Shown here piece after piece: positions 34,448 through 41,883 of a stretch of DNA of 64,000 nucleotides. The stretch is taken from the sequence record OL631484.1; one strand, written 5' to 3'. The notes below the pieces were generated by a model. The model was given only the letters and a program-made list of their open reading frames with translations. It was not told the origin of the DNA and made no database searches. Each line of letters starts with the position of its first letter. The first letter of the stretch is position 1. This DNA comes from Escherichia phage ECML-606-1. The translations under genes and the position numbers were made by a program.

Positions 34448-34500
34448 GGGGTTTGCCCTTTCAAAACATGCTTAAATTCTGCCGTCACGACGCAAATACG

Positions 34501-35604
34501 TCATGCAAGGATTTTTTCGAGCAGCGCCGCAAAATCAGGATCGTCACCCGGTTGCGCTTTCGTGGTGGCCACCCAGCGCCCCCGGCAGTGTGGATGCGCC
34601 AGCCCGGCAGGAAGTTGCCAGAGCTCGTCCTCAGTCCGCTTCACCAGCTTCCCGGCGACGCGCTTATATGGCGACGCTGAGCGCCCGATATTGTTTTTAC
34701 CGGGCCAGATCATCGTCGCGGGATCTTTGTTGGGGTAATCAGCCGGAACCACCGTGGCGATCTTCCCGTGAATCTTTTTACAGAATGGGCAGGCGGTGCC
34801 GTACATTTCGACACGCTCCACTTTTGACATCGGCTCGCACGCGGCGATAAAGCCCTGTAGCTGGCACTCTCCAGCCTCTGTGACGGCGATTCGACGCCAG
34901 TCCCTGTTCAGCTGCGCGAAGTTGTCAAAAAGCTCCTGCTGGAGCGCCTGCTGCGTTCCCGGCTCCCCCAGCTGTTTGCGCTCCTCGCTGCGCATGATCA
35001 CGCCCCGCATCATCTTCCGGGTGTTGTCCGCCAGATTGACCACGTTCTCAGCCGCGCGAGCGCTGGCAAAGTCCAGCGTGGTCTTTTCGATTTTGGTCAG
35101 CGGTACGCCCCCGGACTCCTCTTTGGTGTTGGGCAGAGCCATCAGCAGCTTGGCGGCGTCGTTAGCCGTCAGCTCTTTTTCCCAGTTAGCCTGGACTTTT
35201 CCCAGCAGCGTGGCTTTGGTCGCCAGCCAGTCGGCTTCTGCGATCAGGACATCCTTCGGCATGTAGGTTTGCACCGTCAGCTCGACGGCGAGAAAATGAT
35301 CGTCCAGTGTCCACTGGTCGAACGGCAGCACGCGCAGGTACAGATCCACCAGCTCGCGCTCCTCCTCAGTCCAGACCTGCATCATGCCCACCTGCGGCTT
35401 TGGCTGCGGTTTTCCTGCCTTCTGGTTCTTCCCCAGCTCCCACGCCTCAATCGCCTTTCTGACGTTGCCCAGATGCAGCAGGCCGCGCTGGGTGAACAGC
35501 TCCACCAGCTTGCGGATAAGCGGGCTTTCGTGCGGACGCCAGATATCGCCATCTTCGCCACCGCGAATGGCTTTGTGCATGGTCTCCAGCACTTCATTTG
35601 TCAC
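34501..35604 (-). CDS. MuF-like minor head (head morphogenesis) protein
   Basis: Size and downstream-of-portal position; C-terminal CPFC...HPHC cysteine/histidine motifs common in MuF/SPP1 gp7-family proteins. Confidence 0.6.
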   Translation of the reverse strand: MTNEVLETMHKAIRGGEDGDIWRPHESPLIRKLVELFTQRGLLHLGNVRKAIEAWELGKNQKAGKPQPKPQVGMMQVWTEEERELVDLYLRVLPFDQWTLDDHFLAVELTVQTYMPKDVLIAEADWLATKATLLGKVQANWEKELTANDAAKLLMALPNTKEESGGVPLTKIEKTTLDFASARAAENVVNLADNTRKMMRGVIMRSEERKQLGEPGTQQALQQELFDNFAQLNRDWRRIAVTEAGECQLQGFIAACEPMSKVERVEMYGTACPFCKKIHGKIATVVPADYPNKDPATMIWPGKNNIGRSASPYKRVAGKLVKRTEDELWQLPAGLAHPHCRGRWVATTKAQPGDDPDFAALLEKILA

Positions 35605-35866
35605 GTATGGCGTGAGCGATGTCAGATCGAGCGTAATGATGGCGTAGTCTCCTTAAATTAGGTGCCCCCCTTCTGGGAGGGGCGTGCAACCATTCGGCTA
35701 CCCTTGCGGGCTGGTTGCTGCGTTCGCTGGCACAGTCACGCAGAGGCCCATCAGCCTCACCCTCAGTCAGCGTGAGGGAGGATTCCCCGGAGGCTCAACC
35801 TCCTCCAAGCCCCGGCGACTAGCGGGGAATGCACAGGTTTGCTTTCGCAATCGGAGCACCAAAAAC

Positions 35867-37660
35867 TTACAGGTCGGGCAGACCAAACGATTTGTAGAGC
35901 CCTTCCTCGTCGAGGTTCTGCAATGTGTTATGCAGCTCATCGAATTTTTTCTTATTGTCGGCTTGCAGCTGCTCCTGCTCGGCCTGCTGCTGTGCAGCTG
36001 CGTCGGCGTCGTCAGGGTTGGCAGGATCAGCGCCCAGCTCCTCGCCCGGCTGCTGTAGCTCGGCCTGCTGCGCCATCTGCTCGGCCTGAATATCAGCGTT
36101 GACCTTAGCCATATAAGGCTGCATCGAAACGCTGTTAAGCGGGGAGTTGGCCCAGTCTTCTTTGATTTCTTCCCAGTTGCGAGCGCGGCGTGCTTCGTTG
36201 ACGGTAAGGAGCGTTTTCTCCTCGTCCCACGCCTGCTTCGGATCCTTCTCATCCAGACCTGTCCAGCGGAACACGTACTTATCTGAGAAGTCGGAAATGA
36301 TGTAATCGGTGAATAAGTCCTCAAAGTGCGACAGCAGCGGTCGCAGGCCCTTATCCTTCGAGTTGATCAGCTTCTCCTCCGTGTCACTGCCGGACAGCGA
36401 ACTGGTACCAGCAGTGAAGGATTCGAAGTTGATCTCGTCCGGGGCGATGCCATAAATAGCGCAGATGATCGCGGTTAAGAACGTCATCCATTTGGCAAAC
36501 ATGATCTCGTTAACGTCTACGCCAAAGTTTTCAAATTTCGCCGTGGATTCCGAAGTTTTGGAAACCATGACGGGCAATGTCCATGCGTTATTGATGCCCT
36601 TCACCATGCTATTCCAGTACCGCTTAAAGGAGTTGAGATCCTCGGTAGAATAGTCGCCGGAGAGATGGAGCAGACCTTTCGGGATGGCGTTCGAGTCGAA
36701 ATACTTCTGGTTGTACGTCATGGCGTTCAGGAAGCCCGTGACGGTGTTTACCAGCAGCTCAGTTTCGCTCATCCCGTAACCTCCGTTCAGCACATCGGTG
36801 CGGGTGTTGCGCGGAACATAGATCAGGTCGTTGTAGGTGTAAGCGGTGCGGATGTTCCCCTGCACCACCTGTAAAGCAAAAATCTCATCATCGCCCTTGT
36901 AGCCGTCCTCAGTACAGAGGCGGATCGTGGCACCATCGACGGCATAAAGCCCGTCCATGCCTAGCGAGCGGTTTTTCTTGAATTCGGTCTCAATCGGCGC
37001 GGAGTCCATCACCAGCGAGTCGCGCACCAGCTTGCTCATGAAGCCTGAGAAGTTATCGCGCTTGAGGCGAGCACGCACGCGGGGGTTACTCTCCCAGCCG
37101 CAGTTTTGCATGAACATTTGCAGCGCGTTGATGGAGTCCTGCTCAGGCTTCGCCAGCCGCTGTGAGCCATTCTGCTCTTTCAAGCGAATCTGGAAGCCGG
37201 GGCCCACGCCTTTCTCACTGGCGCGGCAGAAGCGTTTGATCTGGCGGATGCGGGTCATCACCACCGCCGACAGGATTGGCGTCTTGTCCACCATGTAGCG
37301 CATGGCATCAAAGCCAAAGTTTGTCGGACGCTCATACCAGTCTCCCAGAATCTGCACCTGACGGTCATCCAGCCAGACAGACTGCATACCTTCTTTCTTG
37401 CCCTCGCGGACAGCCTGAGAAGGGTAATCGACCAGTGTATTTTTCTGGAGGGACTTGTAAAATTCCTGATCAGCATATGACTGGGCAATATGCTGAATCA
37501 GCGGAGCCAGATCCGGCACGCTGGAAGGCATTGCAGCTTTCTGCGCTTGCGCCATCGCATCCTGCTGTTCGTCGGCAGGCGCGGCAGGGTTGTGCGCGGT
37601 TTGGATGGCGTTGTCAGACATACGGTTAACCTTTGCAAAGTAGTTCGCAGAGAGTGACAT
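35867..37660 (-). CDS. portal protein
   Basis: About 600 aa, located between terminase and MuF-like gene, acidic C-terminal tail; track start TTG 37678 lies inside the conserved GTCGTGATG motif so ATG 37660 or 37621 is more likely. Confidence 0.7.
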   Translation of the reverse strand: MSLSANYFAKVNRMSDNAIQTAHNPAAPADEQQDAMAQAQKAAMPSSVPDLAPLIQHIAQSYADQEFYKSLQKNTLVDYPSQAVREGKKEGMQSVWLDDRQVQILGDWYERPTNFGFDAMRYMVDKTPILSAVVMTRIRQIKRFCRASEKGVGPGFQIRLKEQNGSQRLAKPEQDSINALQMFMQNCGWESNPRVRARLKRDNFSGFMSKLVRDSLVMDSAPIETEFKKNRSLGMDGLYAVDGATIRLCTEDGYKGDDEIFALQVVQGNIRTAYTYNDLIYVPRNTRTDVLNGGYGMSETELLVNTVTGFLNAMTYNQKYFDSNAIPKGLLHLSGDYSTEDLNSFKRYWNSMVKGINNAWTLPVMVSKTSESTAKFENFGVDVNEIMFAKWMTFLTAIICAIYGIAPDEINFESFTAGTSSLSGSDTEEKLINSKDKGLRPLLSHFEDLFTDYIISDFSDKYVFRWTGLDEKDPKQAWDEEKTLLTVNEARRARNWEEIKEDWANSPLNSVSMQPYMAKVNADIQAEQMAQQAELQQPGEELGADPANPDDADAAAQQQAEQEQLQADNKKKFDELHNTLQNLDEEGLYKSFGLPDL

Positions 37661-37696
37661 CACGACATCACGACGCAAAATAATTTAAATACCCTC

Positions 37697-37725: not shown

Positions 37726-38168
37726 CCATCCCGTAGCGCTGATTGGGATGTCTTTCGAAATTGCGTTTTCATTTTCTGTCAATGTCAGTTATGGGACGGA
37801 AGACATCAACCAATGAGCGCTTGGCTTTGACTACTCAATACGGATTTGTCGTTATTTCGCGTATACGGTTGTCAAGTGCTCAGCCATGTTCTAACCCGCG
37901 CAGTATTGCTAAAGCCCAAGTGGGGCCGTCTTCAATACTCGCGGCAGTGAACGGCGAATGGCAAGCTACTGGCCTGACTTTCCTTCTTTCAAAGCAAAGA
38001 TTGAAGTGGGCGGCGTCGGCTCATTGAAACAACGGCGCAATCGGGTGAAAATCCCGTTCAAATTCTACCGATTAGTGACGATGAAAGGGGCCTTCGCGAT
38101 CCCCAAGTAATTGGCAGGTTGCCTTAGGTCACAAGCCGCAGCGGAGATTGCAAGCGAAGCTGTAGGAT

Positions 38169-38196
38169 AGAGGTTCGACTCCTCTGATCGGTGCCA
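38169..38196 (+). other. tRNA-like 3' module (T-arm plus acceptor 3' strand plus CCA) without canonical 5' half
   Basis: AGAGG-TTCGACT-CCTCT T-arm followed by GATCGGT-G-CCA; matching acceptor 5' strand only found about 120 nt upstream. Confidence 0.3.
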
Positions 38197-38338: not shown

Positions 38339-38462
38339 TGAAGCGTAGCTCATTGGCAGAGCAGCACACGGATGCGGATCCGCGCCAGCACAAGGCTCCT
38401 TCGGGGTGTGCCGCTGGCTCCAGAAGTGTATGTAACTGGTTCGATCCCAGTCGCTTCAACCA
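38339..38462 (+). other. oversized tRNA-like element (canonical acceptor, D-arm and T-arm but about 124 nt long)
   Basis: 5' TGAAGCG-TA-GCTC-ATTGGCA-GAGC and 3' ACTGG-TTCGATC-CCAGT-CGCTTCA-A-CCA pair as acceptor/D/T arms, but no standard anticodon arm; contains palindrome GCGGATCCGC and a UUCG-like hairpin. Confidence 0.3.
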
Positions 38463-38466
38463 TTTT

Positions 38467-38542
38467 GATTCTGTAGCTACAGCGGTAGAGCGGCGCACTG
38501 TTAATGCGCGGGTCGCTGGTTCGAATCCAGCCAGAATCGCCA
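38467..38542 (+). tRNA. tRNA-Asn (anticodon GTT)
   Basis: 76 nt cloverleaf: acceptor GATTCTG/CAGAATC, D-arm with GG, anticodon stem GCGCA/TGCGC with loop CTGTTAA, T-arm GCTGG-TTCGAAT-CCAGC, discriminator G and encoded CCA; close match to enterobacterial tRNA-Asn. Confidence 0.85.
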
Positions 38543-39267: not shown

Positions 39268-41883
39268 TTAATCGTCACCTTTCGAAATGAAGCCGGAGCA
39301 GCCAATATCCTCCGGCTTCACCTGCATCATGATCTCATGGCAGGATCTGGTCTCCGGGTCGTAGTTCACACAGCGCCCGCAAACATCCCCGCGATACTTC
39401 ACGTTGTTCACCTCATCCATGTAGCTCACCAGCGTCTGATCGACGCCGATATCCAGCGGGCTCAGTCGCTCGATCTTCACCTGCGGGGCATCCGGCAGAA
39501 TAAACGTACTGGTGCCATGGGCGCGACTCCATGCGACATCGCACAGCAGGTTTGCGTAGGAGAAGTGGGGATCGATGCCGATTTTCTTCACGCTGCGCTT
39601 GTACTGGTTCGTTTCCTCGTCCTTCTCAGCCACCAGCGCCGTTTTGGTGAAGTGCGTGAACATTACCGGGGCCACGGCTTCCACGCGCGTGACGCCCTTC
39701 TCACGAATCTCCTGCACCAACCCCTGAGGGTCTGGGATGAGGCAGATTGGCTCGTCGGCAGTGAAGCGGGCCATTGAGACCTGCATACACTTATACTGGT
39801 CAATGCGGACGGTGTAGCGATCCTGTTCGTTCTCGTCGGTGCGCACATCGGACTTGTCCAGCTTCATGCTGTCATTCCACTGGATCATGCCATCCGCCAC
39901 GGTGCCGAAGCTGTTACAGATGAATACCCGGCCTTTGTGACGGTTGGCGAAGCGCTTGGCGTCGTTGTAGTTCGGGTTGATTTCCACCACGCAGCAAGCC
40001 ACGCCGTACTGGTTCATCAGCTCGCTACAGCGGGCAAACGGATCCTCGCTGTAAATCATTTCGATGTGGACAATTGCTTGGTGGCCGGAGGGCAGTCGCT
40101 CCTTGATAACCACCACGTTAAACTGGCCCATCTGGTCAATACCCATGTAGCAGTTATCCGCGCGGGACTTCCACTGCACGCCAAAACGCAGGCCATGCTT
40201 AACGCAATTCGCCAGGTGTTCCAGCGTTACCGGAACCAGCGACGGATCGAGGAACGGCTTGCCCAGCTTACGGTTATAGAAGTTTTTCATATCCGTAGCG
40301 TTGTTGAAGGCGGAAATAATCTCGCCGGGGCTGATTGTCGGTGACAGGAACTGCGGGAAGTGCGCCGACCGGATGCACATTTCCCCTTCCTCATTCTCCG
40401 GCGCATCCGGGATCCATTCCCCGCGCTGCGTGTCCTCAATCCATCCTCCGCAGCTGTAGCAGACATATCGGTGGCGTCTGGTGTCCGGGTCGTACTTAAT
40501 GCACTGCGGGAAATAGTCATCCAGCGGTTTCTTTTCGAGGCAGTGCGGGCATTCGGTATGGAAACGGTACTGGGATCCCAGCTTGTACCAGTGGTGGATA
40601 TCGGAGTCGGGCCAGTTGGCGGTGGAGCCCATCAGGCTGTAACGGATCGGGGATGCAGATAGACGCTCGCGCGTTTTCTCCATCTGCTCCAGTGACATTT
40701 CCTGCACCTCATCGAAGCTCAGGACATCCATCGGGATGGATTCGGTAGTCGCGCGGCCCGATGTCCAGCTGAATACAAACATCGCCTCACCGATGCGACG
40801 GGTACGCACGTTACCCTCACCTTTCTTGCGACCGCCGCCTTTCTCATCGTCCTGCACCATCAGCGCATGTACCTCAGGTACGGTGCGCACAATCGGCATG
40901 AAGCGCTCGGAGGACTTGATCCCCGCCAGCGCGGCATCCGGCAAGAACATGCCGATAGTCATCGGCTGGAAGCGCAGGCCAAGGTAAATAACAGCGAGCA
41001 TTTCCATGACGGTAAAGCCCACCTGCGCACACTTCATCAGCACCAGCGTTTTGCGGTATGCCTCCTCGACGGTGCTGGGGATCTGGTCATAAATCCACGC
41101 CATCGCCGGGCGGTTGTCCAGCTTGAACGGGCGACCATCCACTTTGAGGCCCGTTTCGCCCAGCCGGATGCACCACTCCAGAAAGGTCTCGTTTGGCTTG
41201 AGGATTTTCTGCGAGGCGGTCAGGACAAAGGTCGTATCGAGGAATTCAGCATCGTAGCGCTGGCGCTTCTCATCCCCGGTCGTGTTGTCCATTTTCTCCA
41301 GGAATGCCGCGTCGAGATTATGGCGGTTGGTCTCGGTCGGCACGCGGCGTCGGAACCAGTCAGGATCCAGCTCGGCCTCCATCCACAGGCGATAAAAGTC
41401 GTGATTCTTCCCGTAGGCACCGGACAGGAACCATGCACTGCCGTGGTACTCGCGCAGGCACTCAGCCAGCGTGTCACCCCAGATCTGCATGAAGTTGTAA
41501 ATCTCGCGCACGTCATCAATGATCATCAGGCCATACTGCCCATTAACCTCTTTCAGGCTGTCAGCCGCGTAAAGGTCAATGTACTGGCCCGATAGCAGCG
41601 TGATGCGCCTGCTGGTTGAGCTCTTGATGAGGGGATCGATGGCCTGTACGATCCGCGTGCGAACCTCCATAAGGTCTTTGTACGTAGCGCTCATCCACAT
41701 CGCCGGGGCAGGGTTATTCATGATGCCCTGTTTCCCAGCCACCAGCGCCTCTATGCCAAGCGTTGTTTTTCCTGCCTTCTCGCCCATGGCAATAACGTTA
41801 AAACGCGCCGCACGGTCGATACAGACCTGCAACGCGTCATTGAGAATGGGCAGCTTAATTTTAACGGTCTTTTGGCGTGCCAT
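39268..41883 (-). CDS. terminase large subunit, GpA (lambda A)-like, with about 250-aa N-terminal P-loop extension
   Basis: Internal KCAQVGFT (cf. lambda gpA KSARVGYS), zinc-finger-like FHTECPHC...YVCYSCGG, C-terminal nuclease-like region; additional N-terminal Walker A GEKAGKTT and Walker B-like LMIIDD. Confidence 0.75.
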   Translation of the reverse strand: MARQKTVKIKLPILNDALQVCIDRAARFNVIAMGEKAGKTTLGIEALVAGKQGIMNNPAPAMWMSATYKDLMEVRTRIVQAIDPLIKSSTSRRITLLSGQYIDLYAADSLKEVNGQYGLMIIDDVREIYNFMQIWGDTLAECLREYHGSAWFLSGAYGKNHDFYRLWMEAELDPDWFRRRVPTETNRHNLDAAFLEKMDNTTGDEKRQRYDAEFLDTTFVLTASQKILKPNETFLEWCIRLGETGLKVDGRPFKLDNRPAMAWIYDQIPSTVEEAYRKTLVLMKCAQVGFTVMEMLAVIYLGLRFQPMTIGMFLPDAALAGIKSSERFMPIVRTVPEVHALMVQDDEKGGGRKKGEGNVRTRRIGEAMFVFSWTSGRATTESIPMDVLSFDEVQEMSLEQMEKTRERLSASPIRYSLMGSTANWPDSDIHHWYKLGSQYRFHTECPHCLEKKPLDDYFPQCIKYDPDTRRHRYVCYSCGGWIEDTQRGEWIPDAPENEEGEMCIRSAHFPQFLSPTISPGEIISAFNNATDMKNFYNRKLGKPFLDPSLVPVTLEHLANCVKHGLRFGVQWKSRADNCYMGIDQMGQFNVVVIKERLPSGHQAIVHIEMIYSEDPFARCSELMNQYGVACCVVEINPNYNDAKRFANRHKGRVFICNSFGTVADGMIQWNDSMKLDKSDVRTDENEQDRYTVRIDQYKCMQVSMARFTADEPICLIPDPQGLVQEIREKGVTRVEAVAPVMFTHFTKTALVAEKDEETNQYKRSVKKIGIDPHFSYANLLCDVAWSRAHGTSTFILPDAPQVKIERLSPLDIGVDQTLVSYMDEVNNVKYRGDVCGRCVNYDPETRSCHEIMMQVKPEDIGCSGFISKGDD

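Follow-up and report, generated by a model that had tools for sequence, protein, structure and literature searches.

In Escherichia phage ECML-606-1 (sequence record OL631484.1), a 226-nt non-coding gap separates the portal gene from the head gene that follows it. This gap is a member of a previously uncatalogued structured-RNA family and is read from the gene-sense strand. The 64,000-nt stretch of this record analysed here is referred to as the window, and the gene-sense strand is its minus strand. That the gap is a real, conserved and strand-specific structured RNA of a new family is, in our judgement, almost certain. A structured RNA had been one of several explanations offered by an initial annotation made from the sequence alone, and it is the one borne out: the fold is conserved, covarying and strand-specific, and it contains pseudoknots. 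The check proposed there, folding with covariation analysis across related phages, gave a covarying conserved fold in a region kept in 16 other loci.

The core of the element matched by a covariance model lay at 35684-35832 (128 bits, E = 3e-31), and the borders were widened beyond this core to take in PK0, H0 and H7. The features of the element are as follows (coordinates in the window, strand, description; PK, pseudoknot).

35664-35852, minus: whole element, ~190 nt, comprising H0, three pseudoknots, H1-H4, P5/P6 and H7 (covariance model plus extensions)
35837-35852, minus: H0 hairpin UUGC-GAAA-GCAA, read from the sequences; enterobacterial clade only
35835-35839, minus: PK0 5' strand AACCU, whose partner is H2-loop bases 1-5, AGGUU (35797-35801); 4 bp conserved
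35810-35827, minus: H1, 5-bp stem CCCCG/CGGGG, its loop containing the PK1 5' strand GUCGC (35815-35819); covariation
35787-35808, minus: H2, 7-bp stem UUGGAGG/CCUCCGG with the 8-nt loop AGGUUGAG; covariation
35779-35786, minus: unpaired conserved joiner GGAAUCCU; alignment
35760-35778, minus: H3, 6-bp stem CCCUCA/UGAGGG, its loop CGCUGAC (35766-35772) being the PK2 5' strand; covariation
35743-35758, minus: H4, GAGGC-UGAUGG-GCCUC; 6 of 7 pairs covary
35735-35739, minus: PK1 3' strand GUGAC, whose partner is the H1 loop (35815-35819); covariation
35725-35731, minus: PK2 3' strand GCCAGCG, whose partner is the H3 loop; 5 of 7 pairs covary
35719-35724, minus: unpaired conserved AACGCA (AGCGCA in distant members); alignment
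35686-35718, minus: 3' domain, P5 GCAACCA/UGGUUGC around one G, P6 CCC-GCAA-GGG and the conserved UAGCCGAA; covariation
35664-35683, minus: H7, stable terminal hairpin 2 nt past P5, with no usable U-run in the window
35782-35789 with 35823-35830, minus: alternative 8-bp helix ATTCCCCG/CGGGGAAT (AUUCCCCG/CGGGGAAU); sequence comparison

RNAalifold was applied to the six closest sequences and returned 36 pairs, 19 of them with compensatory changes. For the larger counts, 13-16 sequences were segmented by hand and each segmentation was verified as an exact substring of its locus. The segments were padded with N so that MAFFT held the register, and pairs were then counted by program. P5/P6 were counted on a separate alignment because MAFFT shifted the 3' domain (columns beyond ~125) of the full-length hand alignment. 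For H1-H4 and PK1, 98.6% of 366 cells were paired, compared with 69.3% in shuffled alignments and 32-46% when the partners were slid. Both sides changed in 28 of the 31 pairs, and the covariation score of 0.768 (versus 0.219) was reached by none of 500 shuffles. In P5/P6, 98.5% of cells were paired against 66% in shuffles, all ten pairs covaried and the covariation score was 0.918 versus 0.284. Slid-partner controls over both alignments left 31-51% of cells paired. For H1-H4, PK1 and P5/P6 together, 98.6% of 496 cells were paired and 38 of 41 pairs showed compensatory changes.

The strand was read from the wobble pairs. The nested helices and PK1 contained 30 G·U cells versus 4 A·C cells, and reading the opposite strand would drop pairing from 98.6% to 93.3%. 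This excess of G·U indicates that the fold belongs to the gene-sense strand.

Each part of the fold could be followed through the family. All five H1 pairs and 6 of 8 H2 pairs covaried, with 100% of cells paired in both, as did all six stem pairs of H3. The H2 loop has the family consensus GGGCUAAN. H4 was variable in relatives, with stems of 4-7 bp and the loops UUCG, UACG, GUAA, GUGA or GGCAAC, and stable tetraloops (GCAA, UUCG, UACG, GUAA, GUGA) were exchanged among members. H0 took the forms UUGC-UGAC-GCAA in L005 and UCCAA-UUCG-UUGGA in Yen. In the 3' domain the motif UAGYCGAA was invariant across the family, and P6 was inverted in L030/L031, where CGGG-GUAA-CCCG replaces CCC/GGG.

The 3' strands of PK1 and PK2 are adjacent segments downstream of H4. 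All five PK1 pairs covaried (95% of cells paired), and the variants GUCUG/CAGAC, GCCUG/CAGGC, GCCUC/GAGGC and UCUUC/GAAGA were found. PK2 and PK0 were first spotted by eye and then counted. The PK2 3' strand is the seven bases directly 5' of AACGCA; examples are CGCUGGU/ACCAGCG, CGCUGUC/GACAGCG, GCCAUU/AAUGGC and UCGCU/AGCGG, and UA, CG, AU and GC alternate at three of its pairs. PK0 usually has the form AGCCC/GGGCU, from which AACCU/AGGUU of the window differs by a double compensatory change; with 4 bp, its support is weaker than that for the other pseudoknots.

Three of the four hairpins listed in the initial annotation are parts of this fold: GCCCC...GGGGC is H7, CCCTCA/TGAGGG is H3 and GGAGG/CCTCC lies in H2. 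The fourth turned out to be an alternative pairing. The alternative helix AUUCCCCG/CGGGGAAU is mutually exclusive with H1 and the base of H2. It is kept in the window, L005 and Yen, is compensated in L026 (AUACCC/GGGUAU) and is lacking from distant members. Possibly it represents a second conformer of the intercistronic variants only. The hairpins had been described as having no U-runs, which is correct: the bases after H7 in the window are ACCUAAUUUAAGG, H7 has no usable U-run and no terminator is predicted in the gap.

The gap itself extends from the portal stop codon to the head-gene start at 35640 and occupies 35641-35866 (226 nt, minus strand). The interval of about 250 bp first given, 35620-35866, thus enclosed a real non-coding gap and overstated its extent. 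Absence of a convincing open reading frame (ORF) was confirmed, since stop codons interrupt all six frames of the gap; the frame of a small ORF in it (MGLCVTVPANAATSPQG) is not conserved among close relatives. A consensus scan predicted neither a sigma-70 promoter nor an intrinsic terminator in the gap. Of the description as GC-rich and highly structured, the conserved RNA fold stands. The G+C content is only modestly raised (61.5% in the gap versus 56.0% in the window), and the folding energy of the single sequence does not exceed that of shuffles. The minimum free energy of the sense strand was -92.5 kcal/mol versus -87.6 ± 4.7 kcal/mol in shuffles (z = -1.04), and the antisense strand gave z = -1.51. 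As neither z-score was significant, single-sequence folding was dropped as evidence for structure.

This folding energy, together with the packaging genes that adjoin the gap, would be expected if the gap were a site acting as DNA (pac, cos or an origin), the remnant of a deleted gene or a set of chance hairpins. We consider this scarcely credible. The excess of G·U over A·C (30 versus 4) and the loop-loop pseudoknots mark covariation of one RNA strand, and the helices are conserved across phages whose head proteins are only ~50% identical. The packaging or origin site suggested in the initial annotation is also contradicted by the linear record of Yersinia phage fHe-Yen8-01, in which the element is internal, 2.3 kb from the end. 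The suggested gene remnant does not agree with the stops in every frame, the compensatory changes in helices, the loop lengths that differ by non-multiples of three, or the coexistence of the element with a small post-portal ORF of relatives (in L027, L030, L036 and L120). A protein-coding gene or pseudogene was rejected on similar grounds: all six frames are stopped, close relatives differ by indels of 1-2 nt and substitutions are paired across helices.

A run of GC-rich hairpins with no U-runs directly 3' of the portal stop could also be a passive stabiliser of mRNA, in which intercistronic hairpins of no specific fold block 3' exonucleases in the manner of repetitive extragenic palindromic (REP) sequences. 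This is very improbable. Three covarying pseudoknots and invariant unpaired motifs far exceed what blocking an exonuclease needs, and in L118 the element is detached from the portal 3' end, with 6.6 kb between the two. A dispersed repeat of the REP type or like a miniature inverted-repeat transposable element was rejected too, since a pattern search allowing three mismatches and both covariance models found one copy in the 64-kb window.

The element resembled no catalogued RNA. Rfam 15 was searched (4227 models, including riboswitches, ribozymes, pRNA, ROOL, GOLLD, group I introns and transfer-messenger RNA, tmRNA), and at gathering thresholds the whole window gave tRNA-Asn alone. At E<=10, the region 35400-36100 gave five chance-level matches of 9-15 bits against cut-offs of 37-138. 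In eight related loci, no match at E<=1 fell on the element. ARAGORN found no tRNA or tmRNA in the gap, and a plasmid collection contained no match to it. A literature search on both phages, on structured RNAs near portal genes and on antitermination RNAs returned nothing relevant. Over 10,000 candidate phage RNAs have been catalogued (PMC10690425); the main text of that catalogue mentions no motif near portal or head-morphogenesis genes, and its supplementary models were not compared.

To determine the distribution of the element, about 100 loci encoding the downstream head gene were taken from viral, genome and metagenome collections and searched with nhmmer and two covariance models. A DNA-pattern scan added further loci. 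The element was present in 17 distinct loci, the window and 16 others:

Loci with the element: window, L002/Yen, L005, L025, L026, L028, L027, L030, L031 (= L118), L122, L123, L006 (= L121), L035, L037, L119, L120, L036

It was not detected by nhmmer or the two covariance models in ~75 further head-gene loci, none of whose head proteins exceeded ~54% identity to that of the window, and the second model, built from 15 members, revealed no hidden copies there. Every element-bearing contig long enough to judge was 76-96 kb. From these sequences, the element is restricted to one clade of phages of ~76-96 kb. The window is 99.6% identical to Enterobacter phage phiT5282EW (genome 95.5 kb), besides which Yersinia phage fHe-Yen8-01 was the sole similar phage record. 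It has an unannotated 273-bp gap in the same place, within which a 46-nt block, CAGCGAACGCAGCAACCAGCCCGCAAGGGTAGCCGAATGGTTGCAC, differs from the window at two positions; the flanking proteins are only ~80% identical.

Two sets of candidates were rejected during this search. An exact 19-mer match to the most conserved block of the element in the scan of viral contigs (L015, 850-1236, minus) lay within an unrelated 128-codon ORF of a 48.6-kb contig and was judged to be chance. A gapped pattern of the 3' domain brought in 12 extra loci (within L104-L116), of which L104 alone was confirmed by the covariance model; its contig is that of L025.

All genes around the gap are on the minus strand. Their order in transcription is tail fibre, terminase, a plus-strand stretch (an ORF and tRNA-Asn), portal, gap and head gene, followed by a head maturation protease, a 229-codon ORF and the major head protein. 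The features next to the element are as follows.

39268-41883, minus: full-size gpA-type large terminase, first in transcription order with the tail fibre gene
35867-37678, minus: portal ORF (Pfam PF04860)
35867-35869, minus: portal stop codon TAA (sequence comparison)
35857-35866, minus: GUUUUUGGUG, conserved right after the portal stop in the window/L005/Yen clade only
35649-35654, minus: Shine-Dalgarno sequence AAGGAG of the head gene (from the sequence)
35638-35640, minus: probable start codon AUC of the head gene, non-canonical, 8 nt after AAGGAG
34501-35640, minus: head gene, 379 codons, constant 3' neighbour of the element

The head gene probably begins at a non-canonical codon. The stretch from the upstream in-frame TAA to the GTG at 35604 contains no ATG, GTG or TTG. 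The peptide (I)ITLDLTSLTPY is conserved with third-position changes and aligns with the N-termini of those relatives that have an ATG start two or three codons further upstream. The start codon is AUU in L005 and fHe-Yen8-01. The public starts (GTG in the window, a later ATG in fHe-Yen8-01) are likely to be at least 12 codons short. The label "MuF-like" given to this gene in the initial annotation was not sustained, for it had no Pfam match at E<=10 (including PF04233) and no PHROG match at 1e-5. The gene order of terminase, portal, head gene, protease and major head protein is MuF-like, and we take the CxxC...HPHCRG motif of the head gene to resemble MuF. The homologue in fHe-Yen8-01 is annotated as a particle-associated protein.

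The constant neighbour of the element is the head gene on its 3' side and not the portal gene. In the loci examined, the element was always upstream of this gene and on the same strand, at 45-130 nt in 12 of 17 loci and at 0.37-1.15 kb in the other five. Transcription of the region was judged from a heptamer of the relatives, GTCGTGA(Y), which stands at a fixed 22 nt 5' of the ATG of portal, head-gene and protease genes. It is nearly confined to the gene strand and often directly follows a hairpin and T-run; its sites have a -10-like hexamer ~7 nt before the ATG and no Shine-Dalgarno sequence. The heptamer may be a phage promoter giving leaderless mRNAs. Copies were also observed in the window. 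One, before the protease gene at 34475-34491 (minus), leads to ATG TTT TGA, and the real ATG (34447) has a Shine-Dalgarno sequence. The other is a duplicated copy upstream of the portal gene at about 37655-37675 (minus).

Three arrangements were found. In the first (a; window, L005, Yen, L025, L026 and L028) the motif precedes portal and protease genes and is absent from the gap, and on the promoter reading the RNA would be intercistronic in a transcript of portal, RNA and head gene. In the second (b; L006, L035, L037 and L119) H1 is preceded by a promoter-like motif at a distance of 32-34 nt. The predicted transcript would start ~6 nt before the PK0 strand, and the RNA would form the 5' end of the head-gene mRNA. 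In the third (c; L027, L030 and the L031 type) the element follows another ORF, and a promoter-like motif lies between it and the head gene. A U-run follows H7 in L030, L031, L118, L122 and L123, where the head gene has its own terminator and promoter-like motif. H7 was predicted to be an intrinsic terminator in L030, is one by sequence in the L031 type and is terminator-like by prediction in L036. One group of loci therefore sets the 5' boundary of the unit by its predicted start site and another sets the 3' boundary by its terminator, so that the unit is delimited from PK0 to H7.

The interval between portal and head gene holds tRNA genes in many relatives. It was also observed to be a hot spot for other cargo, with a ~100-codon ORF (motif HKVKWEHVAGHK) and tRNA genes, often tRNA-Met, in L019, L029, L030, L033, L041, L047, L078, L120 and others. 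A further 0.4-1.1 kb of non-coding DNA lies between the element terminator and the head gene in L030 (1900-2970), L031 (2400-2940), L122, L123 and L120. A conserved hairpin, CCGGAUAGCGUAACCGG, lies in this DNA, where additional RNA genes may be present. In the window, ARAGORN run with introns allowed reported two tRNA-like genes at about 38067-38196 (plus) and 38339-38462 (plus), possibly Cys-gca and Arg-tcg. They carry 51- and 29-nt insertions beside the anticodon loop and lie just upstream of tRNA-Asn (38467-38542). Neither was called by default ARAGORN or Rfam, and they may be intron-bearing, disrupted or tRNA-like RNAs.

With somewhat less than even confidence, we favour a discrete autonomous non-coding RNA over a cis-regulatory leader, because the unit is delimited from PK0 to H7 and tRNA genes occupy the same interval in relatives. 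On these comparisons, the RNA of the window would have neither promoter nor terminator of its own and would be transcribed within the late transcript that runs from portal through RNA to head gene. The module would fold on its own and work as RNA, in the slot used for tRNA genes in related phages. It would either act within the late transcript or be released from it, as happens to phage tRNAs embedded in such transcripts. The unpaired conserved stretches GGAAUCCU, AACGCA and UAGYCGAA are a candidate contact surface for a partner, which could be a protein, a ligand or RNA polymerase.

The main rival explanation is a cis-acting leader of the head-morphogenesis genes, that is, a riboswitch-like sensor, an attenuator or a processive antiterminator. 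Its core would bind a ligand, a protein or RNA polymerase and so govern passage of H7 or translation of the weakly initiating head gene. We rate this as possible and clearly short of probable. The invariable position upstream of the same head gene, on the same strand and adjacent in 12 of 17 loci, is what a leader would show, and the core is complex and covarying, as in riboswitch aptamers generally. Exactly 2 nt separate P5 from H7, which acts as a terminator in several lineages. L006-type loci run from the promoter-like motif through the element and H7 to the gene, and where the element adjoins the head gene, this gene has an AUC, AUU or GUG start. The 3' strand of P5 (GAAUGGUGG) recurs in the 5' strand of H7 in the L031 type, and the 5' strand of P5 could pair with either copy, a possible switch. 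However, this duplicated strand is absent from the window, where H7 has no U-run and no terminator is predicted. The Shine-Dalgarno sequence and start codon are open in predicted folds, in which no sequestration by H7 or by downstream sequence was seen, and no known riboswitch or antiterminator family matches. In arrangement (c), a promoter-like motif intervenes, accompanied in L030 and the L031 type by a terminator, and the element there is outside the head-gene leader. We do not think that the element is a dedicated on/off leader of the head gene.

Alternatively, the element could process RNA, as a self-cleaving ribozyme or a guide for host RNase that splits portal from head-gene mRNA and sets their stabilities. 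The fold is complex, pseudoknotted and ribozyme-like in its conserved unpaired nucleotides, and it lies between cistrons that need very different protein doses. Moreover, AU-rich single-stranded flanks are present in the window (GUUUUUGG at 35857-35866 and CUAAUUUAAGG after H7), and the tRNA genes that fill the slot in relatives are substrates of RNase P/E. Yet these flanks are not conserved beyond the closest relatives, no known ribozyme class matches, and the L006-type element would lie at the very 5' end of its transcript, with no cistrons to separate. We regard this explanation as improbable.

Several points weigh against a discrete RNA of a new family. To become a discrete species in the window, it would need cutting out of an mRNA, and the promoter role of the GTCGTGA motif is itself predicted from sequence. 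The distance of 45-130 nt to the head-gene start in 12 of 17 loci is leader-like, as is the fact that in 11 of these 12 the head gene is without the promoter-like motif that precedes it elsewhere. The weak AUC/AUU start in the clade of the window hints at special translational handling, and a terminator, H7, straight after a complex fold would correspond to the classic layout of a riboswitch or attenuator. The percentage of paired cells is inflated by an alignment that was curated by hand, fitted to the model and padded with N; its result accords with the slid and shuffled controls and with RNAalifold, which was run independently.

No known system among those compared includes the element. GOLLD and ROOL are phage- or prophage-borne, multi-pseudoknot RNAs that often lie beside tRNA genes and whose function is not known (PMC5737381). 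The element is likewise a phage-borne ornate fold in the slot of relatives' tRNA genes. However, it is three to four times smaller (~190 nt versus 581 nt and more), matches no such Rfam model and is found in a single clade of ~76-96 kb phages, invariably ahead of the same head gene. With riboswitch and terminator platforms it shares a covarying core, invariant junction nucleotides and a hairpin at a fixed 2 nt. It differs from them in that no riboswitch family matches, the hairpin of the window has no U-run and the next protein gene of five relatives has its own promoter-like motif.

HK022 put and Bacillus EAR are cis-acting processive antitermination RNAs that lie in or at the head of long operons, before terminators, and put consists of two simple stem-loops of ~70 nt. 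The element is also an RNA inside a long operon ahead of terminators, but it has no similarity to put or EAR in sequence or structure, and the likeness is one of position only. Phage phi29 encodes a structured RNA of ~170 nt, the prohead RNA (pRNA), which acts together with the portal. The element adjoins the portal gene in the window, but no Rfam pRNA match was found, the window phage has a full-size gpA-type large terminase and portal and element are not constant neighbours (6.6 kb apart in L118). The leader pseudoknot of T4 gene 32, an example of the translational operators of phage mRNAs, is absent from Rfam according to PMC10690425. As in an operator of that type, the element is a pseudoknotted RNA just upstream of a phage gene start; unlike it, the element is much larger and more complex, and the ribosome-binding site is outside the fold and not sequestered.

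A new RNA class with an activity of its own is a more speculative reading, which we hold to be unlikely though well worth considering. Such an RNA could be a switch that senses a ligand or protein and gates late head-gene transcription at H7, a self-processing ribozyme that uncouples the portal and head-gene mRNAs, or, like phi29 pRNA, an RNA of head assembly or packaging. The reading is raised because the triple-pseudoknot fold and invariant junction nucleotides are the kind of architecture that such functions require. Complex multi-pseudoknot phage RNAs are rare, and those studied have usually proved to be riboswitches, ribozymes or RNA-protein machines. At ~190 nt the element is small enough for probing, crystallography and cryo-electron microscopy, and the family already supplies 17 natural sequence variants. 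Two cultured phages, Enterobacter phiT5282EW and Yersinia fHe-Yen8-01, carry the element, which makes genetics possible. Annotations should show an RNA feature in the gap and a corrected start for the head gene. Within the late operon, the element marks a place that has repeatedly been used for RNA genes in this phage clade, which raises the question of how structural transcripts yield RNA products.

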